This document shows, piece after piece, positions 1,263-23,005 of a stretch of 60,691 nt of DNA (positions are counted from its first letter, which is position 1; every line of letters begins with the position of its first letter). The position numbers and the translations under genes are program-made. The notes under the pieces were generated by a model. That model saw only the letters and a list, made by a program, of their open reading frames with translations. It ran no database searches and was not told where the DNA came from. The stretch comes from an uncultured Gammaproteobacteria bacterium (lineage in GTDB: Bacteria > Patescibacteriota > Microgenomatia > Levybacterales > UBA12049). The DNA lies in assembly GCA_964603935.1 (NCBI GenBank), contig CAZRWL010000004.1, positions 1 through 60,691 of the forward strand, given 5' to 3'.

Positions 1263-1950
1263 CCAACTCCCCTATTTTGTTTAAAAAATTAATAACTTTT
1301 TGCGATTTTTCCGGGTCTGAAATAACAATTGGACTTAGCGGTTTTTGAATAACTTCAGCCTTTTCTACGGCTATGCCTTTCTCAAGAAGGCGTTCCCGAA
1401 CAGAAAACAAATCGGCATAAGCAGTCTCAATAACTGCTTTATCTCCGGCATCTTCTATATCCTCCGCCCCGCTGGCAACAGCAATTTCAAAAAGCTCGTC
1501 TATTGTTTTTCCTTTTTTGTCCGCAACTATTTTGCCTACTTGGGAAAAAAGATACGCAACGGAACCCGGCTGACCAAAATTTCCGCCTTCTTTATTGAAT
1601 AGACTTTTTATTTCGCTGGTTGTCCGCAAAGTATTGTCTGTAGCAGCTTCGATAATTACGCTTACGCCCTCCGGAGCAAATCCCTCATAAAGCACTTCTT
1701 GCACCTCGCCCGTGTCCTTACCGACAGCTCTTTGAATCGCCCGCTCAATATTATCCTTGGGCATATTTACGGTTTTTGCTTCTTCGATCGCCAATCTCAA
1801 CCTAAAATTACTATCCGGGTCTGTAATTCCCCCACCTTGCTTAATCGCAATTGTTATGGCATTTGAGATCTTGGTAAAAGTAAGGCCTCTTTTGAGGTCT
1901 GCAGCTCCTTTTGCTCTTTTTATTGTAGCCCATTTTGAGTGTCCGGACAT
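1222..1950 (-). CDS. yebC: YebC/PmpR family protein
   Basis: Hallmark N-terminus MSGHSKWATIKR, NFRLRLAI, NMPKDNIERAI, YEGFAP, LDDVQKVYSN; TATAAT just upstream of the ATG at 1950. Confidence 0.96.
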   Translation of the reverse strand: MSGHSKWATIKRAKGAADLKRGLTFTKISNAITIAIKQGGGITDPDSNFRLRLAIEEAKTVNMPKDNIERAIQRAVGKDTGEVQEVLYEGFAPEGVSVIIEAATDNTLRTTSEIKSLFNKEGGNFGQPGSVAYLFSQVGKIVADKKGKTIDELFEIAVASGAEDIEDAGDKAVIETAYADLFSVRERLLEKGIAVEKAEVIQKPLSPIVISDPEKSQKVINFLNKIGELDDVQKVYSNLAQN

Positions 1951-2027
1951 AAGCTTAATTATACTTTCTGCCGTTGACTTTTGCAAGAAAACATAGTATC
2001 ATATTGTGCACATAACTACATCCGCAA

Positions 2028-2741
2028 ATGACCTTATTAAAAGACAAAGCGATTCAAGCAATGCTTTTAGGTGAATGGCAAAACGCGATAAAACTTAACA
2101 AGGCTCTTCTACGTGAAAATCCAAGCGACATCGACGCGCTAAACCGTCTGGCGTATGCTTTCACGACTTTGGGCAGGATAAAAGATGCCAAATCTACTTA
2201 TAAAAAAGTCTTAAAATTAGACGCTCTTAATCAAATCGCCATAAGAAATATCAAGAAAATAACAGGCTTAAATAATCGAATCAACGAAAATACAAGCTCT
2301 ACCCAGCATCTCAACAATATTTTCCTTGAAGAAACAGGAAAAACAAAAATAATCTCTCTTGTAAATACGGCCCAACCAAAGGTTATTGCTCTTCTAACAA
2401 TAGGCCAGCCTGTTGCAATTGCCATAAAACGATCGAGAATATTCATTCAAAATCAAAATAATCGATATTTGGGAGTATTGCCTGATGATATAGGCAAAAG
2501 ACTTATTAAGCTCATAAAAGGCGGTAACAAATATGCAGCTTGCGTCAAGTCAGCAGGAGACACAAATGTTTCTGTTTTTATAAAAGAAGCTAAAAGAGCT
2601 GCAAGATACAAAAACCAGCCTTCTTTTCTGCAAATATCGGACAGCGATCTGAGTTTGCCAAAGGGAAAAACAAGAAATCAAAAAGAGTTTGGAGAGGAAG
2701 ACGACGAAAAAAATTATTTATTGGACGCGGAAGGGTCTTGA
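2028..2741 (+). CDS. TPR-repeat protein with C-terminal HIRAN-like domain
   Basis: TPR pattern (DIDALNRLAYAFTTLGRIKDAKSTYKKVLKLD), then YLGVLPDDIGKRL; acidic tail. Confidence 0.75.
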   Translation: MTLLKDKAIQAMLLGEWQNAIKLNKALLRENPSDIDALNRLAYAFTTLGRIKDAKSTYKKVLKLDALNQIAIRNIKKITGLNNRINENTSSTQHLNNIFLEETGKTKIISLVNTAQPKVIALLTIGQPVAIAIKRSRIFIQNQNNRYLGVLPDDIGKRLIKLIKGGNKYAACVKSAGDTNVSVFIKEAKRAARYKNQPSFLQISDSDLSLPKGKTRNQKEFGEEDDEKNYLLDAEGS

Positions 2742-2875
2742 AATACGATTCTTCCCTTCGAAAGCTTTTTCTTTGCTTGGCGAATAGCCGACTCATCACT
2801 AAGACTCTTAAGCGAAATCACAGAAAGTATTACTGACACAAAACCTATCAAAATGATTACATGCCAAATATTCAT
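2714..2875 (-). CDS. Small single-TM protein, 53 aa (not in ORF track)
   Basis: Own translation: MNIWHVIILIGFVSVILSVISLKSLSDESAIRQAKKKLSKGRIVFQDPSASNK*; starts 12 bp after the upstream stop and fills the gap. Confidence 0.6.
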   Translation of the reverse strand: MNIWHVIILIGFVSVILSVISLKSLSDESAIRQAKKKLSKGRIVFQDPSASNK

Positions 2876-2887
2876 AAACAATAAGTG

Positions 2888-3691
2888 TTAAAACGGCGAA
2901 GCACCCGCTTTGTCCTCTCCTATTGTTATAGTAATATCGGAAACTGCATTGCTGCTTTCTTTAACGCTTTTATATTTTAACATTTTAGTTAACTTTTTAA
3001 CCGTATAAGTTTCTTTATCAGTATAGAAAATTTCGGATGTTTTTATAGGACTATCCGATGTCGCAACAATTATAACATTTCCGCCCATATTCGTAATAAG
3101 TCTCGCCAGTCTATTTCCAAAACCAACCACGTCCGTTCCATTGATAATCCGTATTGTTTGACTGTCTCTTTCCATTAACTCATCGCTAACTTGCCTTCCG
3201 ACAATTTTATCCGCTTCTGCCGCGCTTAAATTTTGCGCAATTTCTCTCACGTTGATTTCGCTATCTTTAACGCTTCGGGCGAAAAACGAGAGCCTTAAAA
3301 GGTCTATGATTGTTAGGTTTGTTTGCAGATTATTGTAATTTAAAATCGCTTTTAAGAAAAACGCGGAGTTATTCTGATTCATATCCAAAGAGTTTGAAAC
3401 TATAAATCCATTGATGGGAACTTTCAGGAATTTTCCGGCATTGGCAAACTCAATGCTCTTATTTAATTTAAAAATTGCGATGGTTTTTTCGCCTGGAGAC
3501 AACGACATAACCTTAACGCTCCTATTATCCGAAACGCTGATGGTGAATCTTCCAAAATCGTCAAACTGACCGGCTCTTACAACCAATATAATCTTAAAAA
3601 TCAAAGAGATTCCGGCAATCACTGCAAGAAATATAAGGAAAACAATAGCAATCTTCGTATTACTAGCAACTGCTTCTTTTTGTTTTCTCAT
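2888..3691 (-). CDS. Membrane-anchored LytR C-terminal domain protein
   Basis: N-terminal TM; IRIINGTDVVGFGNRLARLITNMGGNV and DITITIGED match LytR_C. Confidence 0.78.
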   Translation of the reverse strand: MRKQKEAVASNTKIAIVFLIFLAVIAGISLIFKIILVVRAGQFDDFGRFTISVSDNRSVKVMSLSPGEKTIAIFKLNKSIEFANAGKFLKVPINGFIVSNSLDMNQNNSAFFLKAILNYNNLQTNLTIIDLLRLSFFARSVKDSEINVREIAQNLSAAEADKIVGRQVSDELMERDSQTIRIINGTDVVGFGNRLARLITNMGGNVIIVATSDSPIKTSEIFYTDKETYTVKKLTKMLKYKSVKESSNAVSDITITIGEDKAGASPF

Positions 3692-5831: not shown

Positions 5832-6308
5832 ATGGCAGGACAAGAACAAAGATCACTTGCTGAAAGACTTGGAACATTTAATTTTTCAGAAGAAGCAAGA
5901 CAAGCTTTGGAATTCGCAATCGGAAAAGGACGCAATTTTGGATATATAGAGACAACCCACATTCTGCTGGGATTACTTAATAATCCGGGTAACAAAGCGT
6001 GCAAATTACTTCTTACCAAACGCGATCTAAATTTGCAAACCATAAAAGCCAACGTTGATTTTTTGCTTGAACACGAAAAAAGAGATTTGTCTAAGGATAC
6101 TCCAATAAATTTTACTCCAAGAGCAAAAAACGCGGTACTCTTTGCGCTAACAGAAGCTGCAAAAGAAGATAATCAAGGAACTATCGACACTCATCATCTT
6201 CTATTTGGGCTCTTATCGGACAGAAATGCAATAGCTACGGTATTGCTTGAACCCTATGGAATTACACAAGAAAACCTGACAGAACTAAGGAAAATGACAA
6301 AACCTTGA
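5832..6308 (+). CDS. Stand-alone Clp N-terminal domain protein 2
   Basis: FSEEARQALEFA...IETTHILLGLL and FTPRAKNAV...IDTHHLLFGLL; no AAA+ module. Confidence 0.88.
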   Translation: MAGQEQRSLAERLGTFNFSEEARQALEFAIGKGRNFGYIETTHILLGLLNNPGNKACKLLLTKRDLNLQTIKANVDFLLEHEKRDLSKDTPINFTPRAKNAVLFALTEAAKEDNQGTIDTHHLLFGLLSDRNAIATVLLEPYGITQENLTELRKMTKP

Positions 6309-16677: not shown

Positions 16678-16911
16678 ATGCAGCTTATACGAACGACTTT
16701 GAGATTAAAAGAAAATCTAAAAAAACGTGCAGAAAAAAAAGCGTTTGACGAAAACGTAAGCTTACAAGCTATTTTTAACCAAGCTCTGGAACAATATCTT
16801 GAAAAAGACGCTAAGAAACAAGCAAAAAAAATTATATTAAAAGCATATCACTTCGGTAAAAATTTAGATAACTTAACCCGCAATGATTTCTACCCTGACC
16901 CAGAAATTTAA
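16678..16911 (+). CDS. Ribbon-helix-helix antitoxin
   Basis: RTTLRL...SLQAIFNQALEQYL; promoter palindrome TGTCATA-AA-TATGACA at 16650-16665. Confidence 0.8.
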   Translation: MQLIRTTLRLKENLKKRAEKKAFDENVSLQAIFNQALEQYLEKDAKKQAKKIILKAYHFGKNLDNLTRNDFYPDPEI

Positions 16912-16912
16912 T

Positions 16913-17341
16913 ATGCTAATCGACACAAATATCTTAGTTTATTCTATCAATCTAGATTCACTAAAATATAAACAAGCCAAAGAATTTATAAACAATAACC
17001 TAGGCAGACTGGAAATTGCTCACCAGAATATTCTTGAAGCGATTAGAGTATTAACTCATAAAAAATTTTCCAATCCTAGGAAATTAAAAGAAGCGCTAAG
17101 TTCTACTTTGTCAATCGCGCAATCATGTTCCCTGATTTCGCCCAATCAGAATACGCTCTATCTGGCACTTGAGTTAATTAAAAAACATAACTTGAGCGGA
17201 AATAGGATTTTTGATGCTTATCTCACTGCAACAGCGCTCTCCAACGGAATTACGTCAATTGCTACAGACAACACCCGAGATTTCAAGAAATTCAATGGAA
17301 TCAAAACCATTAACCCTTTTGCCTCAACAATCCGCAATTAA
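16913..17341 (+). CDS. VapC/PIN domain toxin
   Basis: MLIDTNILVY, E, IFDAYL, TDNTRDF. Confidence 0.9.
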   Translation: MLIDTNILVYSINLDSLKYKQAKEFINNNLGRLEIAHQNILEAIRVLTHKKFSNPRKLKEALSSTLSIAQSCSLISPNQNTLYLALELIKKHNLSGNRIFDAYLTATALSNGITSIATDNTRDFKKFNGIKTINPFASTIRN

Positions 17342-17359
17342 ATTCCGATATTTTGATAC

Positions 17360-17388
17360 TTGACTTTCGTTGGGTAAAGTGATATAAT
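17360..17388 (+). promoter_or_regulatory. Sigma70 promoter (TTGACT-17-TGnTATAAT) overlapped by a 20-bp imperfect palindrome GACTTTC-N6-TAAAGTG (HisR-type operator)
   Basis: Palindrome at 17362-17381 resembles the YACTTTA-N6-TAAAGTR motif recalled for TrpR-family HisR regulators; lies directly upstream of the TrpR-like gene. Confidence 0.65.
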
Positions 17389-17401
17389 TTAGTATGATAC
17401 A

Positions 17402-17686
17402 GTGAAAATTGACAGCCGCAATAAGAATGTCTCCGATCTTTTAAGAGTGTTCCTTGCTTTAAAAAATGAAAAAGAGTGCTGGAAGTTTTTTAGAGATTTA
17501 TTAACAGAAGCGGAAATAAAAGAATTCGCAAATAGATGGAAGGTTGCCAGAATGCTTGATCAAAAAAATTACTACGAAGCAATTGAAAAAGAAACCGGTG
17601 TAAGCAGCACAACAATTGCCCGGGTAAATAAATGGCGAACGAAAGGCGAAGGCGGATTTAAAACAATGTTAAGAAGATTAAAATAA
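17402..17686 (+). CDS. YerC/YecD TrpR-like repressor (HisR-like)
   Basis: ECWKFFRDLLTEAE...RWKVARML...TGVSSTTIARV...G.GG; GTG start. Confidence 0.92.
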   Translation: MKIDSRNKNVSDLLRVFLALKNEKECWKFFRDLLTEAEIKEFANRWKVARMLDQKNYYEAIEKETGVSSTTIARVNKWRTKGEGGFKTMLRRLK

Positions 17687-17738
17687 AACTTATGAAATCT
17701 CAACCGCCGTCGAGACTTGAAGAGCATTCGGGATTTTC

Positions 17739-17768
17739 TTGACAATATGCAAAACAACATGATATAAT
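17739..17768 (+). promoter_or_regulatory. Consensus sigma70 promoter TTGACA-18-TGnTATAAT
   Basis: TTGACA 17739-44, TATAAT 17763-68; the ATG at 17776 sits at about +1 (leaderless). Confidence 0.8.
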
Positions 17769-17775
17769 ACTTTAT

Positions 17776-17835
17776 ATGACAAACGCAAGATTAAAATTTG
17801 CCTATCATTATTACACCACCTTAATGGCGGCGTAA
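17776..17835 (+). CDS. Attenuator leader peptide MTNARLKFAYHYYTTLMAA
   Basis: 19-aa ORF between the promoter and the terminator; codons TAT CAT TAT TAC at 17803-17814 overlap pairing segment 1. Confidence 0.75.
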   Translation: MTNARLKFAYHYYTTLMAA

Positions 17836-17860
17836 TTTTTGTTGCTTAAAAAATAATTAC

Positions 17861-17883
17861 ACCGCCGGACAGGCGGTTTTTTT
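17861..17883 (+). terminator. Attenuator terminator ACCGCC-GGACA-GGCGGT + T-tract, with antiterminator 17826-37/17855-66
   Basis: Mutually exclusive 1:2, 2:3 and 3:4 pairings are readable in the sequence. Confidence 0.82.
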
Positions 17884-17897
17884 GTGGCTTAAAATAT

Positions 17898-18939
17898 ATG
17901 AACAATCAAAGAATATTATGGTTTCAAGACGGAGTAAAGTTTTCTACTCAAGCTAGAATGTGGGAGAAAATTGATGCACTAACTCAAAAACTCATTGACC
18001 TTGCCAGCAATAGAGATTTTGAGCATGTTGTAGTTGATCCTGTTTCTTGTGCCCAAAAATTATTTAGGCAAACAGACATGCGAGATTATAGCTGTGTTAT
18101 AGATTTGTCAGGATTCTTTGGGGAAATTATTAAACGAAATTCTCCCCAGATTTCCGTTGTTAGTAACTTCAGGCTGAGTAGAATTAGAATCGTATCCTCT
18201 CCCCGTTTGGATGGAAGTGGATTTTTAGTTAGTTTAAATAACCAAGAAGTTAAAAAAATAAAAGACAACATCGATTTGAGCAGGCCTTTACTTTTGGATG
18301 ATGTTGCTTGGTCCGGAAGAACTATTGTTGAAGCAATAAAAATATTAGGAATAGATCCAACAACTACAACAGTTGGACTATTAGCAACTAACGACGGGAA
18401 TTTTGGAGAAGGGAAACCTGGGGCTTTAGGCGTATTAAAAGAAAAAGGAATTACTATCCTGCCAGGAGAAACTATTTCGACCCCGCAAGATGATGGCTTT
18501 CACCTTGCTGATTTTTTCAATTTTTCACCCGATGAAAATCTCTTCAATAGCATATTGGAAATTTGGATAAAAAGAAAAAAGATGCAAAATCTTTCCGGCG
18601 AAACAAGACAAAATACGGAGAATGAAATGAGAACTATTTTAATTAACAACAGAGAAGCCCTTTTCCCAAGAGCTATTTCGTCCGAAGGGATGAGAGCTCT
18701 CCAACAAGAAGGGCGTCTTTATCAATACAAGTGGAATAGCGAAAAATCAAATATTTGACACTAATCCACCCAATTGGCTTATGCCGTCTTTTATGCAAAG
18801 AGTGGATTTAAATATGGTTGCTAGAAATAAAAAAGAAATTATGGAAACTTTAAGGGAGTTTAGGAATATAATTAGCGAAGACCAAGAGATAGCAGAAGGA
18901 CGAAATGAAATTACAAGACGCGGAATAGAAAGAGGATAG
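17898..18939 (+). CDS. Type I phosphoribosyltransferase-like protein, split by a +1 frameshift near 18717-18720
   Basis: PRPP-loop PLLLDDVAWSGRTI; frame 0 stops at 18758; the +1 frame is open 18694-18939 and ends 2 bp before the next ATG. Confidence 0.72.
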
Positions 18940-18941
18940 AT

Positions 18942-19487
18942 ATGAGAAAAATACAAATCGGAGTCATGGGGTCATGTGCGGATCTAAAATACTCAAAGAA
19001 AATAGAACGACTTGCTGAGCAAGTTGGTTTTTGGGTTGCTAAAAAAAAGGCGACTCTTATTTTTGGCGCAGAAAAAGATGTTGATTCTTTATCAACTTCC
19101 GCATGCCGCGGAGCCAAAAAAGTAAAAGGCCTTACTGTTGGAATAACTTACGGAAAAGGACTGGAAGTAAAAGAGAAAAACACTGACATTGTTATCGCAA
19201 GTGGCTCAGAAAGAGGAGGAGGAAGAGAGTTTCCTCTGGTATTGAGCTGTGATGCAATTATTTGCATTAGCGGAGGTTCCGGAACTTTAACCGAGATAGC
19301 TATTGCCTACCAAGCAAATATACCGATTGTGACTTTGCAAGGAACCGGCGGATGGAGCGAAAAACTAGCCGGACAATTTTTGGATGGACGAAATAGAATT
19401 AAAATAGAGTCTGCCAAAACTCCTAAAGAAGCAGTTAGCCTGGCAATAAAACTAGCCTTAAAAAATCATCGTAACCAATCCTTATAG
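18942..19487 (+). CDS. LOG/SLOG family protein (TIGR00725-like)
   Basis: IGVMGS, AEQVG, GGGRE, DAIICISGGSGTLTEIAIAY..NIPIV, GTGGWS. Confidence 0.9.
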   Translation: MRKIQIGVMGSCADLKYSKKIERLAEQVGFWVAKKKATLIFGAEKDVDSLSTSACRGAKKVKGLTVGITYGKGLEVKEKNTDIVIASGSERGGGREFPLVLSCDAIICISGGSGTLTEIAIAYQANIPIVTLQGTGGWSEKLAGQFLDGRNRIKIESAKTPKEAVSLAIKLALKNHRNQSL

Positions 19488-19577
19488 TTAGGGATTGGCT
19501 GTGTTTTTCATTTTAAATTAAACCGCAAAAACACCATCGATCTCTGTCTATAAGGATTTTTTTCTTTGACAGAGATC
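19475..19577 (+). promoter_or_regulatory. Candidate structured RNA switch between the LOG stop and the PRTase-2 start
   Basis: Three hairpins plus an alternative 11-bp pairing 19477-87/19548-58. Confidence 0.6.
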
Positions 19578-19580
19578 ATT

Positions 19581-20498
19581 ATGGTAGAAAGTTTTAATTA
19601 TAAATCACTCGAGAAAAAAGAGACAACGCAACAAAGTCCTTATGTAGTATCACAGGATATAGGTATTCTGATGAAAAAATGGGCGAAAGAAAGAAATTTT
19701 AATCTTCCAAATGAAGAGTTTATTACACAGTTGCGTTCGGAGTTTGCTCAATTTATGAAACGAATTTTTCCGAGCTTTGAATCGGTAAATGAAAATGAAT
19801 TATCAAATGGATTAAGAAGTCTTGTTGAAAGTACCGAGCTTTTTTCGATATCCTTAGACCGAGTCTATTTTCAGTCAAATCCTAGCATAGACATTTCCAG
19901 ACTTGTGGATAATGAGGGCAAAGATAAAGGTTTGGGCAGAAGAAGAGATTCATCTTCCCTTCTTGGACAATTTAAAAAATTAAAAAAACTTGACATAAAA
20001 GAAGCTGTTTTAGTGGATGATGTCGTTTTCTCAGGAAGTTTGGTAGAAAGAATAATGAATGTTTTATCGGACATTAACATAAAAATACCAGTAATTTGTG
20101 CTGGCATTGCAATAAAGGAAGGAATAGATATTATTGCTAAGTCTGGCAAAGAATTACGAGCCGTAAAAATTTATGACAAAGTAATCGATGAAGTTTGCGA
20201 AAGAGATTTTTATCCGGGCGTCCCATTTTGCGGAAGATCTCTTAACAGTTGCGACAACGTTGGTATACCCTACATTCTGCCCTTTGGAGACCCTGGAAAA
20301 TGGGCGTCAATACCGCAAGAGTGGCAAAAACCTTTCTCTCAATTTTGCTTACGACAATCTATCAAATTATTTGAAAAGGTAGAAAACTGCTCAGGAAGAT
20401 ATATTTACTGTTCAGATTTAGATCGAAAAATAATTTCATTACCAAGTAATAATACTAGATTTATTAGTTCCCTAAAACAATTTTTACAAGAAATATGA
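19581..20498 (+). CDS. Second type I phosphoribosyltransferase-like protein
   Basis: AVLVDDVVFSGSLV PRPP-loop; shares SR..D..G and D....DF motifs with the first PRTase-like gene. Confidence 0.75.
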   Translation: MVESFNYKSLEKKETTQQSPYVVSQDIGILMKKWAKERNFNLPNEEFITQLRSEFAQFMKRIFPSFESVNENELSNGLRSLVESTELFSISLDRVYFQSNPSIDISRLVDNEGKDKGLGRRRDSSSLLGQFKKLKKLDIKEAVLVDDVVFSGSLVERIMNVLSDINIKIPVICAGIAIKEGIDIIAKSGKELRAVKIYDKVIDEVCERDFYPGVPFCGRSLNSCDNVGIPYILPFGDPGKWASIPQEWQKPFSQFCLRQSIKLFEKVENCSGRYIYCSDLDRKIISLPSNNTRFISSLKQFLQEI

Positions 20499-20584
20499 TA
20501 TTATAAAAGAGGCTATAAAAAAAATCACCCCGCTGTTTAGGCGGGGGAAATTCGTTATTTACAATTTAACACAAGAAAATAATT

Positions 20585-21772
20585 ATGTCAAGTATTAAAG
20601 CGCAAACGCTAAAAGGATTCAGAGACTTCCTCCCTAGCGAGGCGAGAAAGAGACAGTTTGTTGTTAACGCTTTGAAAAAGGTGTTTGAATCTTATGGCTT
20701 TGAACCGCTTGAAACACCTAGCTTGGAATACGAAGAAATACTTCTTGGAAAATATGGTTCGGAAGGCGATAAATTAATGTACCGCTTCGAAGATAATGGG
20801 AAAAGACGCGTTGCATTAAGATACGACCAGACCGTTCCCCTGGCCCGTGTTGTGGCACAATACCAAAATCAACTCCCAATGCTGTTTAAACGGTACCAAA
20901 TTCAAAATGTCTGGCGCGCGGAAAATACCCAAAAAGGCCGTTTCCGCGAATTTCTCCAATGCGACATCGACACTGTCGGCACATCTTCCCCACTGTCCGA
21001 TACGGAAATTATTGAAGTTGCTGCAACTTCACTCAAAGCTTTAGGATTTAAAGATTTTAAAATCTTAATCAATGACCGGAAAAATTTTGACAAATTAGAT
21101 AAAAAAGCAATATCTATCATTGATAAATTGGCGAAAATCGGCGAAGACAAAGTTAAGATATATCTGAAAGAAGAAGAAATTGACGACAAAACTCTTGAAA
21201 AAGTAAAAAACATGCCTATTACTGAAGAATTGAAAAATATTGCAGGTTTGCTTGAAAAAATAAAAATTGAATTTTCTCCGACCCTTGCTCGCGGTTTAGA
21301 TTACTACACAGGATTAATTTTTGAAATTGAGATTGAGGGATATTCTGCGGGATCGGTTTGCGGAGGAGGACGCTATGATAATTTAATCGGTTTATTCGCC
21401 AATAAACAAGTCCCCGCAGTTGGCTGCGCTTTTGGTTTCGACCGCCTGATGGAGGCCATGGATCAGCTTAATCTTTTCCCCAAAGACCTGCAAACAACCA
21501 AAGTCTTAGTTACTATTTTCTCCCCGGAACTTGTTCAACAATCAATTAACTGCACTACAGTACTACGTAGCGCTAAAGTATCTACAGAGTTATATCTTGA
21601 TCCAAATGCCAAGCTGGAAAAACAGATGAAATACGCAGATACCAAAGGTATCCCTTACGCTGTTATCATAGGTCCTGATGAGGCAAAAAATAAAACCGTA
21701 ACCTTAAAAAACCTAAAAACCCGCGAACAAAAGACAATTTCCAACGGAAAAATAATCGAAGAGTTATCTTGA
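20585..21772 (+). CDS. hisS: Histidine--tRNA ligase
   Basis: KGFRDFLP, LRYDQTVP, QKGRFREFLQCD, RGLDYYTG, GGGRYD, anticodon-binding domain. Confidence 0.98.
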   Translation: MSSIKAQTLKGFRDFLPSEARKRQFVVNALKKVFESYGFEPLETPSLEYEEILLGKYGSEGDKLMYRFEDNGKRRVALRYDQTVPLARVVAQYQNQLPMLFKRYQIQNVWRAENTQKGRFREFLQCDIDTVGTSSPLSDTEIIEVAATSLKALGFKDFKILINDRKNFDKLDKKAISIIDKLAKIGEDKVKIYLKEEEIDDKTLEKVKNMPITEELKNIAGLLEKIKIEFSPTLARGLDYYTGLIFEIEIEGYSAGSVCGGGRYDNLIGLFANKQVPAVGCAFGFDRLMEAMDQLNLFPKDLQTTKVLVTIFSPELVQQSINCTTVLRSAKVSTELYLDPNAKLEKQMKYADTKGIPYAVIIGPDEAKNKTVTLKNLKTREQKTISNGKIIEELS

Positions 21773-23005
21773 GGTTTTTCTTCTTATCAATATATCTTCT
21801 CCCCATTTTAAGGTTTCGTTTAATATCCTTTGTCTCAAAATCACAGGCATTTGGGCATATCCCTTATCAACTTCTTTTCCACGCTCAAAATATTCCCCCT
21901 CAAAACCTCTATCGCTAGAACGCATAGCCTGAGGAGCTACTACTTTGTGGTTAACGGAATAACTCATTTCAAAAACGATACCCATCGTAGTTCTGGATAT
22001 ACTTTTAGGCAACAGCTGCAGCGTATTTTCTCCTTCAATGATCATCTCCAACGGAGTTGACCTCCTTATTCCCAAATCAATCAATAAATTTTCTACAACT
22101 TCGGGCAACATATCATAGTCCTCTGGTTTCACATCTATGGATAGCTCTCCATGTCTTCTTTTTTCGGCAGGATTAGTTCCCCATTTATACTCAGCTACCT
22201 CACCCGTTAAATCGAATAAACGTGAAGCAGTTTGACGGGCTTTGGCTAATTCCCCACTTCCGTTTGTACTAAATATGTCAATCCAGCCAAAATCTATGCT
22301 CGAATCTTCAGGTTTTCCTTTCTGGTCAGATACCAAAAGGTCTTCAATCCAATCAGCTGCGCCTTTTAATATTGCTGTATGTATTGGCCTAGAGATAAGT
22401 TTCTTGCCAGGATTTCTTGTACGATAAAAATCGCCAACATCTTTTCCTCTTCCTGTGGGAACATCTCTTGTTCCGCTCATAGGTAAACCGGAATATGGAC
22501 CAGGAAAATAATAGTATTCTGGGCGCGTTGTTGAAGACACACTAAATCCCTCAAATTCGTCTGTACTAATGCTAGCTCCTATTTTATTTTCTGTTATTCC
22601 TTGAGGTCTTACTTCAAAAGAGAAATCTCCATCATATTTCCCAGGCTTTCCGTCTTCCGATTTTTTTGTGCGAAAATAAATTTCGACGTCTACCTTATCC
22701 GAAGGCTTAATCCCCAGGTCATTAAAGAACATCCTTAAAGGTTTCGGAACTTCATCCAACTCCTTCTTGGAGGGTGCAAAAGACAAGTATGTCCAAATCC
22801 AAGGATTATCATCATGCTTCCTTATTCGCTTATCAAATCCCCGAGGAAATCTTTCTTCGTTCGCTAACTTTTCATAAAGATTCTCAAATTTAGCATGGGT
22901 ATCCCGTTCGTATTGCTCCATTTGACCCAACCAACCGATTAGAGGGGAAACTTGACCTACTTCTTTAGACAAAGAAAACATTCCTGATTCTATTGCTTGA
23001 GTCAT
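21764..23005 (-). CDS. Orphan protein with an internal two-domain duplication
   Basis: 413-aa ORF with its own TTGACA/TGCTATAA promoter; DLGI and W.ED.L motifs occur twice. Confidence 0.75.
   Translation of the reverse strand: MTQAIESGMFSLSKEVGQVSPLIGWLGQMEQYERDTHAKFENLYEKLANEERFPRGFDKRIRKHDDNPWIWTYLSFAPSKKELDEVPKPLRMFFNDLGIKPSDKVDVEIYFRTKKSEDGKPGKYDGDFSFEVRPQGITENKIGASISTDEFEGFSVSSTTRPEYYYFPGPYSGLPMSGTRDVPTGRGKDVGDFYRTRNPGKKLISRPIHTAILKGAADWIEDLLVSDQKGKPEDSSIDFGWIDIFSTNGSGELAKARQTASRLFDLTGEVAEYKWGTNPAEKRRHGELSIDVKPEDYDMLPEVVENLLIDLGIRRSTPLEMIIEGENTLQLLPKSISRTTMGIVFEMSYSVNHKVVAPQAMRSSDRGFEGEYFERGKEVDKGYAQMPVILRQRILNETLKWGEDILIRRKTSR

Follow-up and report, generated by a model that had tools for sequence, protein, structure and literature searches.

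The co-directional plus-strand array at 17360-21772 of contig CAZRWL010000004.1 (the window is the whole stretch analysed, 60,691 nucleotides) consists of hisR, a phosphoribosyltransferase (PRTase)-like gene named PRT1, a gene for a SLOG protein, a second PRTase-like gene named PRT2, and hisS. The DNA was obtained from groundwater metagenomes, and the host is a bacterium of the Candidate Phyla Radiation (CPR) with a genome of 1.08 Mb that is 97% complete. The whole region is best explained as a single operon of a histidine-auxotrophic CPR bacterium, which is controlled by tyrosine and histidine starvation and carries composite cargo, and we assign a probability of about 0.6 to this reading. 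The regulatory wiring is very probably as described below, and amino-acid-specific phosphoribosyl chemistry of the two PRTases is predicted more tentatively. Judged from gene neighbourhoods, the recurring unit is one PRTase plus SLOG wired to tRNA-charging sensors, and no fixed association of all three enzyme genes is seen. Each regulatory device taken alone has known counterparts; new are their combination, the cargo and a probable frameshift at a sense codon. Seven co-oriented elements followed by hisS had been described from the letters alone, and each of them is found at its place. The tie to translation status proposed in that sequence-only reading is stronger than was supposed: T-boxes, leader peptides and the probable frameshift all read tRNA status. 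Literature searches found no described link of SLOG cluster 4 to aminoacyl-tRNA synthetases, T-boxes or HisR, no paper on tyrosine T-boxes with a PRTase in Patescibacteria, and nothing relevant on SLOG cluster 4 or TIGR00725 or on the combination of PRTase, phosphoribohydrolase and histidyl-tRNA synthetase (HisRS).

PRT1 relatives are found at seven loci on genome contigs and at 13 metagenome loci, two of the latter being the contigs of L005 and L007. In all 15 assessable loci, PRT1 stands behind a tyrosine T-box (7 loci), a Tyr leader (6) or a mixed Tyr/His leader (2, including the window). The upstream sequence of L073, L075 and L077 is too short to be assessed, and L070 retains only the 3' half of a T-box as judged by eye. 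The T-boxes (RF00230) lie immediately 5' of PRT1 and are detected by Rfam with E-values from 3e-11 to 7e-21 and scores of 100 (L002), 98.7 (L006), 95 (L003), 86.3 (L001), 79.7 (L066), 72.2 (L072) and 62.6 bits (L005). Their specifier loop reads GAA-U-UAC in five loci, GAA-G-UAC in L072, and UAC or UAU in L066. As in known tyrosine T-box leaders, the matches are full-length and show the UAC specifier and the UGGU bulge; tyrS follows PRT1-SLOG in L003, where it ends the operon, and in L007. T-boxes usually control synthetases, biosynthesis genes and transporters, and a PRTase with SLOG lies outside these classes of cargo. The window itself has no T-box (Rfam, 17000-22000) and differs from T-box regulons in that a leader peptide and a probable frameshift replace the T-box.

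In the six loci with a Tyr leader in place of the T-box (L004, L007, L067, L068, L069 and L076), a Tyr-rich leader open reading frame (ORF) precedes a terminator; the leaders read YYY in L004, Y-R-Y-Y in L076 and Y-C-Y in both leaders of L007. Tandem Tyr leader ORFs, each with its own terminator-like hairpin, are seen 5' of PRT1 in L067, L068 and L069 (YYNY and YYYY) as well as in L007. A strict leader test, which looks for an ATG ORF of 8-45 codons with at least three Tyr or His among four consecutive residues, finds such an ORF in seven of the eight upstream regions without a T-box and in none of the seven with one; across the whole genome, such ORFs occur at a rate of 0.022 per 330 nt. The upstream regions of L067 and L069 do not differ and that of L068 is close to them, so that about five of these positives are independent. 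The leader reads YHYY in the window and YHHY in L065, the two loci with PRT1-SLOG-hisS downstream of a leader; L065 holds the nearest non-shifting relative of the window PRT1 (55% identity). SLOG directly follows PRT1 in 6/7 genome loci and in most metagenome loci of sufficient length. By its upstream elements, PRT1-SLOG is a tyrosine-regulon pair and not a histidine one, so that the histidine context in which it had initially been placed has to be given up.

The SLOG protein (18942-19487, + strand, 181 aa) belongs to SLOG cluster 4 (LDcluster4, LOG-like; PF18306, 4.1e-30, 104.8 bits against a cut-off of 26.3). It carries the motif GGSGTLTE, and G111, G112, G114, T115 and E118 of the GGxGTxxE pattern are invariant in 17 sequences. 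The match to TIGR00725 (1.6e-23) is below the cut-off, and the nearest solved chains are 1rcu_A (3e-12) and the MoCo carrier protein. Assignment to the curated LOG enzymes was rejected, because NF058542 gives 22.4 bits against a required 300, TIGR00730 17.3 against 96.35 and PF03641 14 against 27. The protein shares with the LOG/SLOG superfamily the Rossmann-like SLOG domain, the GGxGTxxE phosphate-binding motif and the PRTase neighbour; this superfamily and its PRTase-SLOG pairs were reportedly treated by Burroughs et al. in 2015. A YpsA-PRTase gene pair is on record (PMC6459960), and the window protein falls into cluster 4 instead of with YpsA or canonical LOG.

SLOG orthologues are rare, being present in 7/401 genomes sampled evenly across the phylum, and in five of these seven (the window genome, G437, G061, G436 and G250) hisR and/or hisS lies within 3 kb of SLOG. 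G437, which is 100% complete, has the order hisR, HisG (long form), HisI and SLOG at 2757-5373 of L081, and no hisD or hisA/F was found in that genome. In G061, hisR-SLOG is accompanied by a PRTase-like gene of 242 aa, and in G436 a His leader is followed by a 200-aa gene, SLOG and hisS. The two remaining SLOG genomes are G336 and G308, in the latter of which SLOG lies on a 4.3-kb contig. Orphan HisG-like genes adjoin hisS in G011 and G012, and these two genomes and G437 have truncated histidine pathways.

PRT2 (19581-20498, + strand) encodes 305 aa from its ATG, with a TTG at 19566 as a possible alternative start, and has 615 homologues; a scan of genome contigs gave at least three PRT2 loci. 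In L086, PRT2 is directly followed by hisS, and in L059 a PRT2 relative stands beside a hisR-like gene behind an HHH leader. His leaders occur 5' of both L083 and L059, and PRT2 relatives adjoin SLOG in L059, L084 and L085. On the evidence of these neighbourhoods, PRT2 and other SLOG-paired PRTases sit behind His leaders or HisR, or beside hisS. The idea that the two PRTase genes and the LOG-like gene between them form a conserved unit does not survive the neighbourhood survey, in which PRT1-SLOG and PRT2(-SLOG) appear as separate modules; contigs of equal size suggest that the two co-occur only in the close clade of the window. The window, as we read it, combines a Tyr-type pair (PRT1-SLOG) with a His-type arrangement (PRT2-hisS), both placed after a leader that has codons of the two kinds. 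In L060, a 448-aa protein (1904-3250) that combines an N-terminal SLOG cluster 4 region with an AstE/AspA-type deacylase domain is encoded 1.7 kb from a PRT2-like gene.

The spacer between SLOG and PRT2 (19470-19575, + strand) is highly structured, with three hairpins and a folding energy of -32.1 kcal/mol (z -4.79; 0/200 shuffles as stable), and belongs to no Rfam family. Its first hairpin and a T-rich run make up a terminator-like site at 19475-19498, and its last hairpin covers the bases before the PRT2 start codon. The spacer looks like the seam of the two modules and may gate PRT2-hisS. Between PRT2 and hisS, a GC hairpin at 20528-20546 has an A run 5' and a poor T run 3' (fold z -2.03); it is called by the scan as a terminator of the minus strand only and is a poor terminator on the plus strand. 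The last gene, hisS (20585-21772, + strand, 395 aa), encodes histidine--tRNA ligase (TIGR00442, 3.9e-121, 404.8 bits against a cut-off of 286.75) and is the only HisRS gene found in the host genome (a single tblastn match). In L065 and L086, hisS lies within about 20 nt of the preceding gene. Across 17000-22000, Rfam with E-values up to 5 returns only chance-level matches, the best being mir-4679 at E 0.48.

The leader ORF of the window (17776-17835, + strand; ORF scan) has 19 codons, of which codons 10-13 (tat cat tat tac at 17803-17814) are the control codons and read Tyr-His-Tyr-Tyr. The putative attenuator (17811-17884, + strand) consists of region 1 (17811-17820), region 2 (17826-17835), which holds the leader stop codon, region 3 (17857-17866) and a terminator stem (17861-17877; terminator scan) with a T run after it. 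Pairing energies are -8.0 kcal/mol for 1:2, -13.6 kcal/mol for 2:3 (antiterminator) and -11.3 kcal/mol for 3:4 (terminator), and the last two values would fit a switch. As in enterobacterial his and trp attenuation, a short ORF has regulatory codons over region 1 and its stop in region 2, and the 2:3 and 3:4 hairpins, which would exclude each other, are followed by a T run. In contrast to the enterobacterial leaders, that of the window has only four control codons of two kinds (three Tyr and one His), matches no Rfam leader family, and contains a putative switch that equilibrium folding does not reproduce. Anatomy and conservation suggest that the element acts as an attenuator. Transcripts from the hisR promoter and from a second promoter would both reach it, and a shortage of charged tRNA-Tyr or tRNA-His would stall the ribosome on the leader and allow the antiterminator to form.

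In 10 relatives, a homologous leader or the C-terminal tail of HisR reads HHH, HNH or HH; among the His leaders are HHH in L051, HNH in L053, HH in L056 and HHLH in L083. The window leader ...YHYYTTLMAA aligns with ...SHHHTTLGAV of L055, and by this alignment the Tyr codons derive from His codons through two C-to-T changes. With its mixture of Tyr and His codons, the leader would be a compact attenuator for two amino acids that arose by these changes. In L052, L054, L055, L081 and L082, the tail of the hisR ORF carries a run of His codons (HHH or HH) 6-12 codons before the stop and is followed by an intrinsic terminator, so that hisR itself seems to double as the leader peptide in these five relatives, a feature that sets them apart from the published HisR regulons.

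The regulator gene hisR (17402-17686, + strand, GTG start) encodes a YerC/TrpR-family repressor of 94 aa that matches Pfam Trp_repressor PF01371 (3.5e-21) and NCBIfam YerC/YecD TIGR02531 (2e-23, 82.6 bits against a cut-off of 42.2) and scores below the cut-off of the TrpR equivalog. Orthologues with 54-68% identity occur in nine relatives in the order M24 peptidase, hisR, variable cargo and, usually, hisS. In L050 and L055 this cargo is the complete hisGDCBHA operon; in six other loci (L049, L051, L052, L053, L056 and L057), hisS follows with HisG-like genes or other cargo in between. Cargo in the relatives includes HisG-like genes, M15 and M20 peptidases, a GNAT protein, a nucleoside hydrolase and HAD phosphatases. 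By profile and gene order, the TrpR-like gene of the window is a HisR orthologue, and the YerC/YecD match and the his operons behind its orthologues bear out the earlier suggestion of a HisR-like repressor.

The hisR promoter, TTGACT-17-TATAAT at 17360-17388 (+ strand; promoter scan, 11/12 matches), contains HisR box 1, ACTTTC-N6-TAAAGT, between its -35 and -10 elements (17363-17380, + strand, one mismatch to the HisR consensus), and HisR box 2 (17386-17403, + strand, two mismatches) reaches into the GTG start codon. The published operator consensus is cacTTTAnnnnnnTAAAgtg (PMC9413887). In 9/9 orthologous loci, ACTTTA-N6-TAAAGT occurs twice, once across the hisR promoter and once reaching the start codon, and it is this position and conservation, not the motif count, that support the boxes. 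Autorepression of hisR through the two boxes on its own promoter is a strongly supported prediction. The second promoter (17739-17768, + strand), TTGACA-18-TATAAT with an extended TG, is the only 12/12 match among the 23 sites found.

The HisR (YerC) regulons described in PMC9413887 for Firmicutes and other phyla share with the window a TrpR-family protein of less than 100 aa, a 20-bp cacTTTA-N6-TAAAgtg palindrome on its own promoter and, in some relatives, its place as first gene of his operons. The window regulon differs from them in that hisS and PRTase/SLOG genes take the place of genes for histidine biosynthesis or transport, and in that HisR is combined with a leader attenuator, whereas the same source reports attenuators in Firmicutes where control by HisR and T-boxes is lacking. 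PMC9413887 is not known to name CPR genomes. That source also ties HisR2 paralogues to tyrosine genes, and the effector of the window HisR may have shifted toward tyrosine. A second YerC/TrpR-like gene (85 aa) follows tgt on host contig 9 (L089, 1062-2685), and the same arrangement is seen in G011 (L047).

Because hisG, hisD, hisB and hisA/F gave no tblastn matches in the 97% complete genome, the host is predicted to be a histidine auxotroph that retained the regulator. The slot behind HisR and next to hisS is also that of HisG with HisZ/HisS, and in relatives it holds orphan HisG-like genes (L052, L053) or HisG-HisI-SLOG (L081). The fold of PRT1 and PRT2 is that of type I PRTases and not that of HisG, and the host has no his pathway that their product could enter; a role of either protein as a HisG substitute in a working pathway is rejected, since tblastn finds no hisD, hisB or hisA/F in the genome. 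Reduced-genome CPR bacteria would in this way rewire the His regulon after pathway loss: HisR and the attenuator persist, in some cases with the leader fused to HisR, and other cargo is taken on in exchange.

The PRT1 gene is broken in frame. Its zero-frame part (17898-18758, + strand) encodes 286 aa up to a TGA stop (18756-18758) and contains the PRPP loop DDVAWSGRT (PRPP, phosphoribosyl pyrophosphate); its C-terminal part (18721-18939, + strand) lies in the +1 frame, comprises 72 codons and a stop, and is recognised by homology to long relatives and by its NPPNWLMPSF motif. Read with a +1 shift, PRT1 has 346 aa, and long homologues of 335-354 aa likewise run past ...EGRL into the NPPNWLMPSF segment. 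The +1 frame is open from 18694, so that a shift is possible within 18694-18758, and the homology to long relatives places it at Leu274. The site there (18708-18723, + strand) consists of a Shine-Dalgarno (SD)-like GAAGGG, the spacer CGT, CTT (18717-18719), a skipped T (18720) and ATC (18721-18723), and the zero-frame A-site codon is TAT (Tyr). A reading with a 4-nt step at each CTTT shifts at four other in-frame CTTT sites as well and does not read the gene through. The tail of the host 16S rRNA carries CCUCC.

Conservation accompanies this anatomy. Of 51 PRT1 homologues, 15 with 63-74% identity end at the same break, and four +1 ORFs of the close clade that were called as genes of their own (P0173-P0176) show 65-73% identity; two of these lie on contigs equal in size to contigs with truncated PRT1. 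The AlphaFold2 (AF2) model of the full-length homologue P0016 packs the post-shift segment on the core as a strand and helices, with N288, P295 and F297 invariant. The stretch 18248-19246 is reproduced, with 0 differences, in an assembly of a further sample from that study. It is strongly supported that full-length PRT1 can be obtained only by a +1 ribosomal shift at CUU-U|AUC, and the shift is probably programmed. The alternative is a fixed gene split or inactivation, in which the 286-aa product is functional by itself or the gene is no longer active. Gene callers do give two ORFs, the host prfB has no frameshift of its own, and the A-site codon is an ordinary and common Tyr codon. Yet both halves are similarly conserved across the 63-74% identity clade, the +1 frame has no start codon before the conserved strand and the NPPNW motif, the first ATG being inside that motif, and the slippery CTTT is accompanied by an SD-like element at prfB spacing; a split or dead gene is an unlikely explanation of the break.

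A programmed shift in PRT1 would resemble that of prfB, whose motif is AGGGGG, 3 nt and CTTT (PMC12421855). CTTT, the P-site Leu codon CTT, a purine run of SD type three bases 5' and the C after the A-site codon are shared. In PRT1, the A-site codon is the sense codon TAT and not a stop codon, so that the site would work like that of prfB without being a member of the class; its signal would be the supply of Tyr-tRNA and not the level of release factor, and its position is close to the 3' end of a gene for an enzyme. According to PMC13326639, +1 shifting at Tyr codons in Escherichia coli increases by 31-37% when Q34 is missing and by 76-106% when ms2i6A37 is missing as well. Because Tyr-codon shifting thus tracks tRNA modification, a site of this kind can report the state of tRNA-Tyr. 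A shortage of Tyr-tRNA would lengthen the pause at CUU-UAU and yield more full-length PRT1. The PRT1 site is a rare bacterial candidate for a programmed +1 shift at a sense codon outside prfB, with Tyr-tRNA sensing as its hypothetical function. In L007, which is on the same contig as L074, PRT1 has a frame break of its own near residue 80 (about 6200-6260), for which ccc-t-atc, with TAT as A-site codon, is the best candidate; this break is seen on one contig only and may be an assembly error. L007 has no T-box, and tyrS lies downstream.

Both PRTase-like proteins fold as type I PRTases according to structural models, as had been proposed from their sequence. The AF2 model of PRT2 (predicted local distance difference test, pLDDT, 92.9) aligns over 116 residues to the orotate PRTase 2yzk_A (VIA) with Z 11.4 and a root-mean-square deviation (rmsd) of 3.1, and in Foldseek it matches only PRTases (E about 2e-4). 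The model of P0016, which represents full-length PRT1 (pLDDT 92.8), aligns over 137 residues to the same chain with Z 10.3 and rmsd 5.5. The top 39 structure matches of PRT2 and the top 37 of the PRT1 homologue are all PRTases or PRPP synthases. In the PRPP loop, D134, S139 and G140 of PRT1 are invariant and D135 is nearly so, and D146, D147 and G152 of PRT2 (loop DDVVFSGS) are invariant. By sequence, the two proteins are best regarded as new families: they score 12.5 and 15.6 bits with PF00156 against a cut-off of 26.3, PRT2 matches PF24390 PRTase-CE at 4.6e-5 with 23.9 bits against a cut-off of 27, and PDB sequence searches with PRT1 and PRT2 profiles return nothing under E 0.08. An hhalign comparison of PRT1 with PRT2 gives a probability of 4.6% (E 0.0087) and does not show kinship. 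As leads only, the Atlas shows HAD phosphatase fusions of PRT2-like folds and, for 15% of one cluster, nucleotidyltransferase fusions.

The PRTase families differ by Tyr or His sensor while SLOG is common to both, and for this reason amino-acid-specific chemistry is preferred over generic salvage. Each PRTase would use PRPP on an acceptor specific to its own amino acid, Tyr for PRT1 and His for PRT2; the common SLOG protein would bind or cleave the resulting ribose-5-phosphate compound, and the module would supply or spare the cognate amino acid for tyrosyl-tRNA synthetase or HisRS. It is conceivable, and no more firmly held than this chemistry, that PRTase-SLOG pairs are an unrecognised, amino-acid-specific response arm to uncharged tRNA in CPR, with PRT1 under three interchangeable Tyr-tRNA sensors (T-box, leader and a shift at the hungry codon UAU), a shift device that arose twice (CUU-UAU-C in the window clade and CCC-UAU-C in L007), and new PRPP chemistry on Tyr- or His-related acceptors or on tRNA-Tyr and tRNA-His. 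Two widespread and uncharacterised families, that of PRT1 (51 relatives) and that of PRT2 (615), would gain a physiological context, namely induction by shortage of charged tRNA-Tyr or tRNA-His, which narrows the candidate substrates.

The generic alternative is remodelling of the nucleotide pool on starvation, in which SLOG, in the manner of other LOG-family nucleotide 5'-monophosphate nucleosidases, splits nucleoside monophosphates to base and ribose-5-phosphate, the PRTases re-salvage the bases, and Tyr or His is only a choice of sensor. Such a role is suggested by the nucleoside and nucleotide enzymes that accompany the modules, namely an IU-nucleoside hydrolase with a HAD phosphatase (L005, L056 and L086), a PfkB kinase (L084) and a PNP-like protein (L059), and by the invariance of the LOG-type GGxGTxxE motif; prs (PRPP synthase) and four other canonical PRTases are also encoded in the host genome. 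However, SLOG falls into the 1rcu/MoCo-carrier clade and not into canonical LOG, and generic salvage has no need for a division by which PRT1 goes with Tyr sensors in 15/15 loci and His sensors accompany PRT2, a 271-aa PRTase and HisG. We consider remodelling of the nucleotide pool unlikely, at about the same level as a split of PRT1.

Tyr and His tRNAs are two of the four queuosine-bearing tRNAs, and IU-type nucleoside hydrolases serve queuosine salvage. The cargo could salvage queuine or 7-deazaguanine, with leader stalling and the UAU shift reporting poor decoding by unmodified tRNA. The host genome contains tgt, while queA and queC were not found there; tgt is present in 6/6 SLOG genomes against 23/41 relatives and lies about 2 kb from PfkB-HAD-SLOG-PRT2 in L084, and in E. 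coli +1 shifting at Tyr codons increases when Q is lost (PMC13326639, as above). T-boxes, however, sense charging and not modification, and one base needs no pair of amino-acid-specific PRTases. Moreover, queA occurs in 3/5 other SLOG genomes, no module was seen adjoining asnS or aspS, and TGT takes the free base, which leaves no obvious role for a PRTase. Queuosine salvage is an improbable function of the array.

That both domain types occur in conflict systems had been noted in the sequence-only reading, and a further alternative is a nucleotide-based conflict or defence system with a PRTase akin to retron type III-A or PRTase-CE effectors and SLOG as sensor. It draws on the PF24390 match of PRT2, which recurs in 12/28 family members, on PADLOC matches to PRTase_III-A (E 0.006-0.03), on a patchy distribution together with high sequence conservation, and on PRTase-SLOG pairs among conflict-type contexts (PMC6459960). 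But all of these profile matches are below curated cut-offs, the window neighbourhood encodes no reverse transcriptase, nuclease, TIR or other effector, viral contigs contain 0 PRT1 or PRT2 relatives, and the genes form part of operons that include aminoacyl-tRNA synthetases and are controlled by amino-acid sensors. Defence is very improbable, and the array gives no indication of a conflict system.

Several observations weigh against the operon model preferred here or against parts of it. PRT1 and PRT2 are each present in only 2/41 related genomes, and in 4/7 PRT2 loci (L058, L060, L084 and L085) neither hisR nor hisS is seen within the fetched flanks. Four of the seven T-box matches (86.3, 79.7, 72.2 and 62.6 bits) fall under the Rfam gathering score of 93, and among the five in which the base after the specifier can be read from alignments, this base is a purine once. 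HisR box sites with at most one mismatch number eight in 1.08 Mb against about 10 expected by estimate, so that the palindrome alone is not significant genome-wide. Equilibrium folding from region 2 to the end of the attenuator gives the terminator pairs 0.87 and the antiterminator 0.13, and when a ribosome is placed on the His codon, the terminator is lost only in L051 among five leaders tested. As to the frameshift, the scan of 13 metagenome PRT1 loci contains none of the shifting clade, so that conservation within that clade is at the protein level only; GAAGGG also codes for a conserved Glu-Gly and is present in the non-shifting L003, so it may be no stimulator; and the host prfB (contig 6, 45494-46483) is uninterrupted. 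Finally, a PRTase and an N-glycosidase acting on one compound would form a futile cycle.

The scarcity of PRT1 and PRT2 would also fit incidental cargo, in which mobile accessory PRTase and SLOG genes occupy a variable hisR-hisS slot and inherit their regulation by position with no functional meaning. Neither gene is found in the other six genomes of the genus, every relative has different cargo between hisR and hisS, terminator-like hairpins lie on both sides of PRT2, and an RHH-PIN pair lies just 5' of the array. Against this, the pairing of PRT1 with a Tyr sensor is achieved by three distinct devices in unrelated neighbourhoods, the window leader has Tyr codons at the His positions of its relatives, and SLOG is near hisR or hisS in 5/7 genomes, although the places that have a given single-copy gene within 3 kb make up well under 1% of a 1-Mb genome. 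The same observations bear on the earlier thought that an island captured the hisS attenuator: variable cargo in this slot is real, but the change of the leader to Tyr codons indicates that the cargo was integrated and not simply parked. Incidental cargo is improbable, and the operon controlled by Tyr and His starvation remains our preferred explanation.

Contigs in three runs splice the terminator region (17860-17897) straight to the start of hisS, with joints 17887>20681 and 17897>20672. The sides of these joints are only 27-28 letters long and probably represent DNA of other organisms; the joints may reflect cargo-free relatives or chance. Downstream of the array, a 413-aa ORF (21764-23005, - strand) converges on hisS and overlaps its end by 9 bases; it has no match in Pfam, NCBIfam or PADLOC. 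Upstream, the RHH (CopG-like, E 0.0014) and PIN (7.3e-13) gene pair at 16678-17341 lies between the M24 peptidase gene and hisR and is likely a toxin-antitoxin module. The M24 peptidase gene and hisR are adjacent or one gene apart in most relatives.

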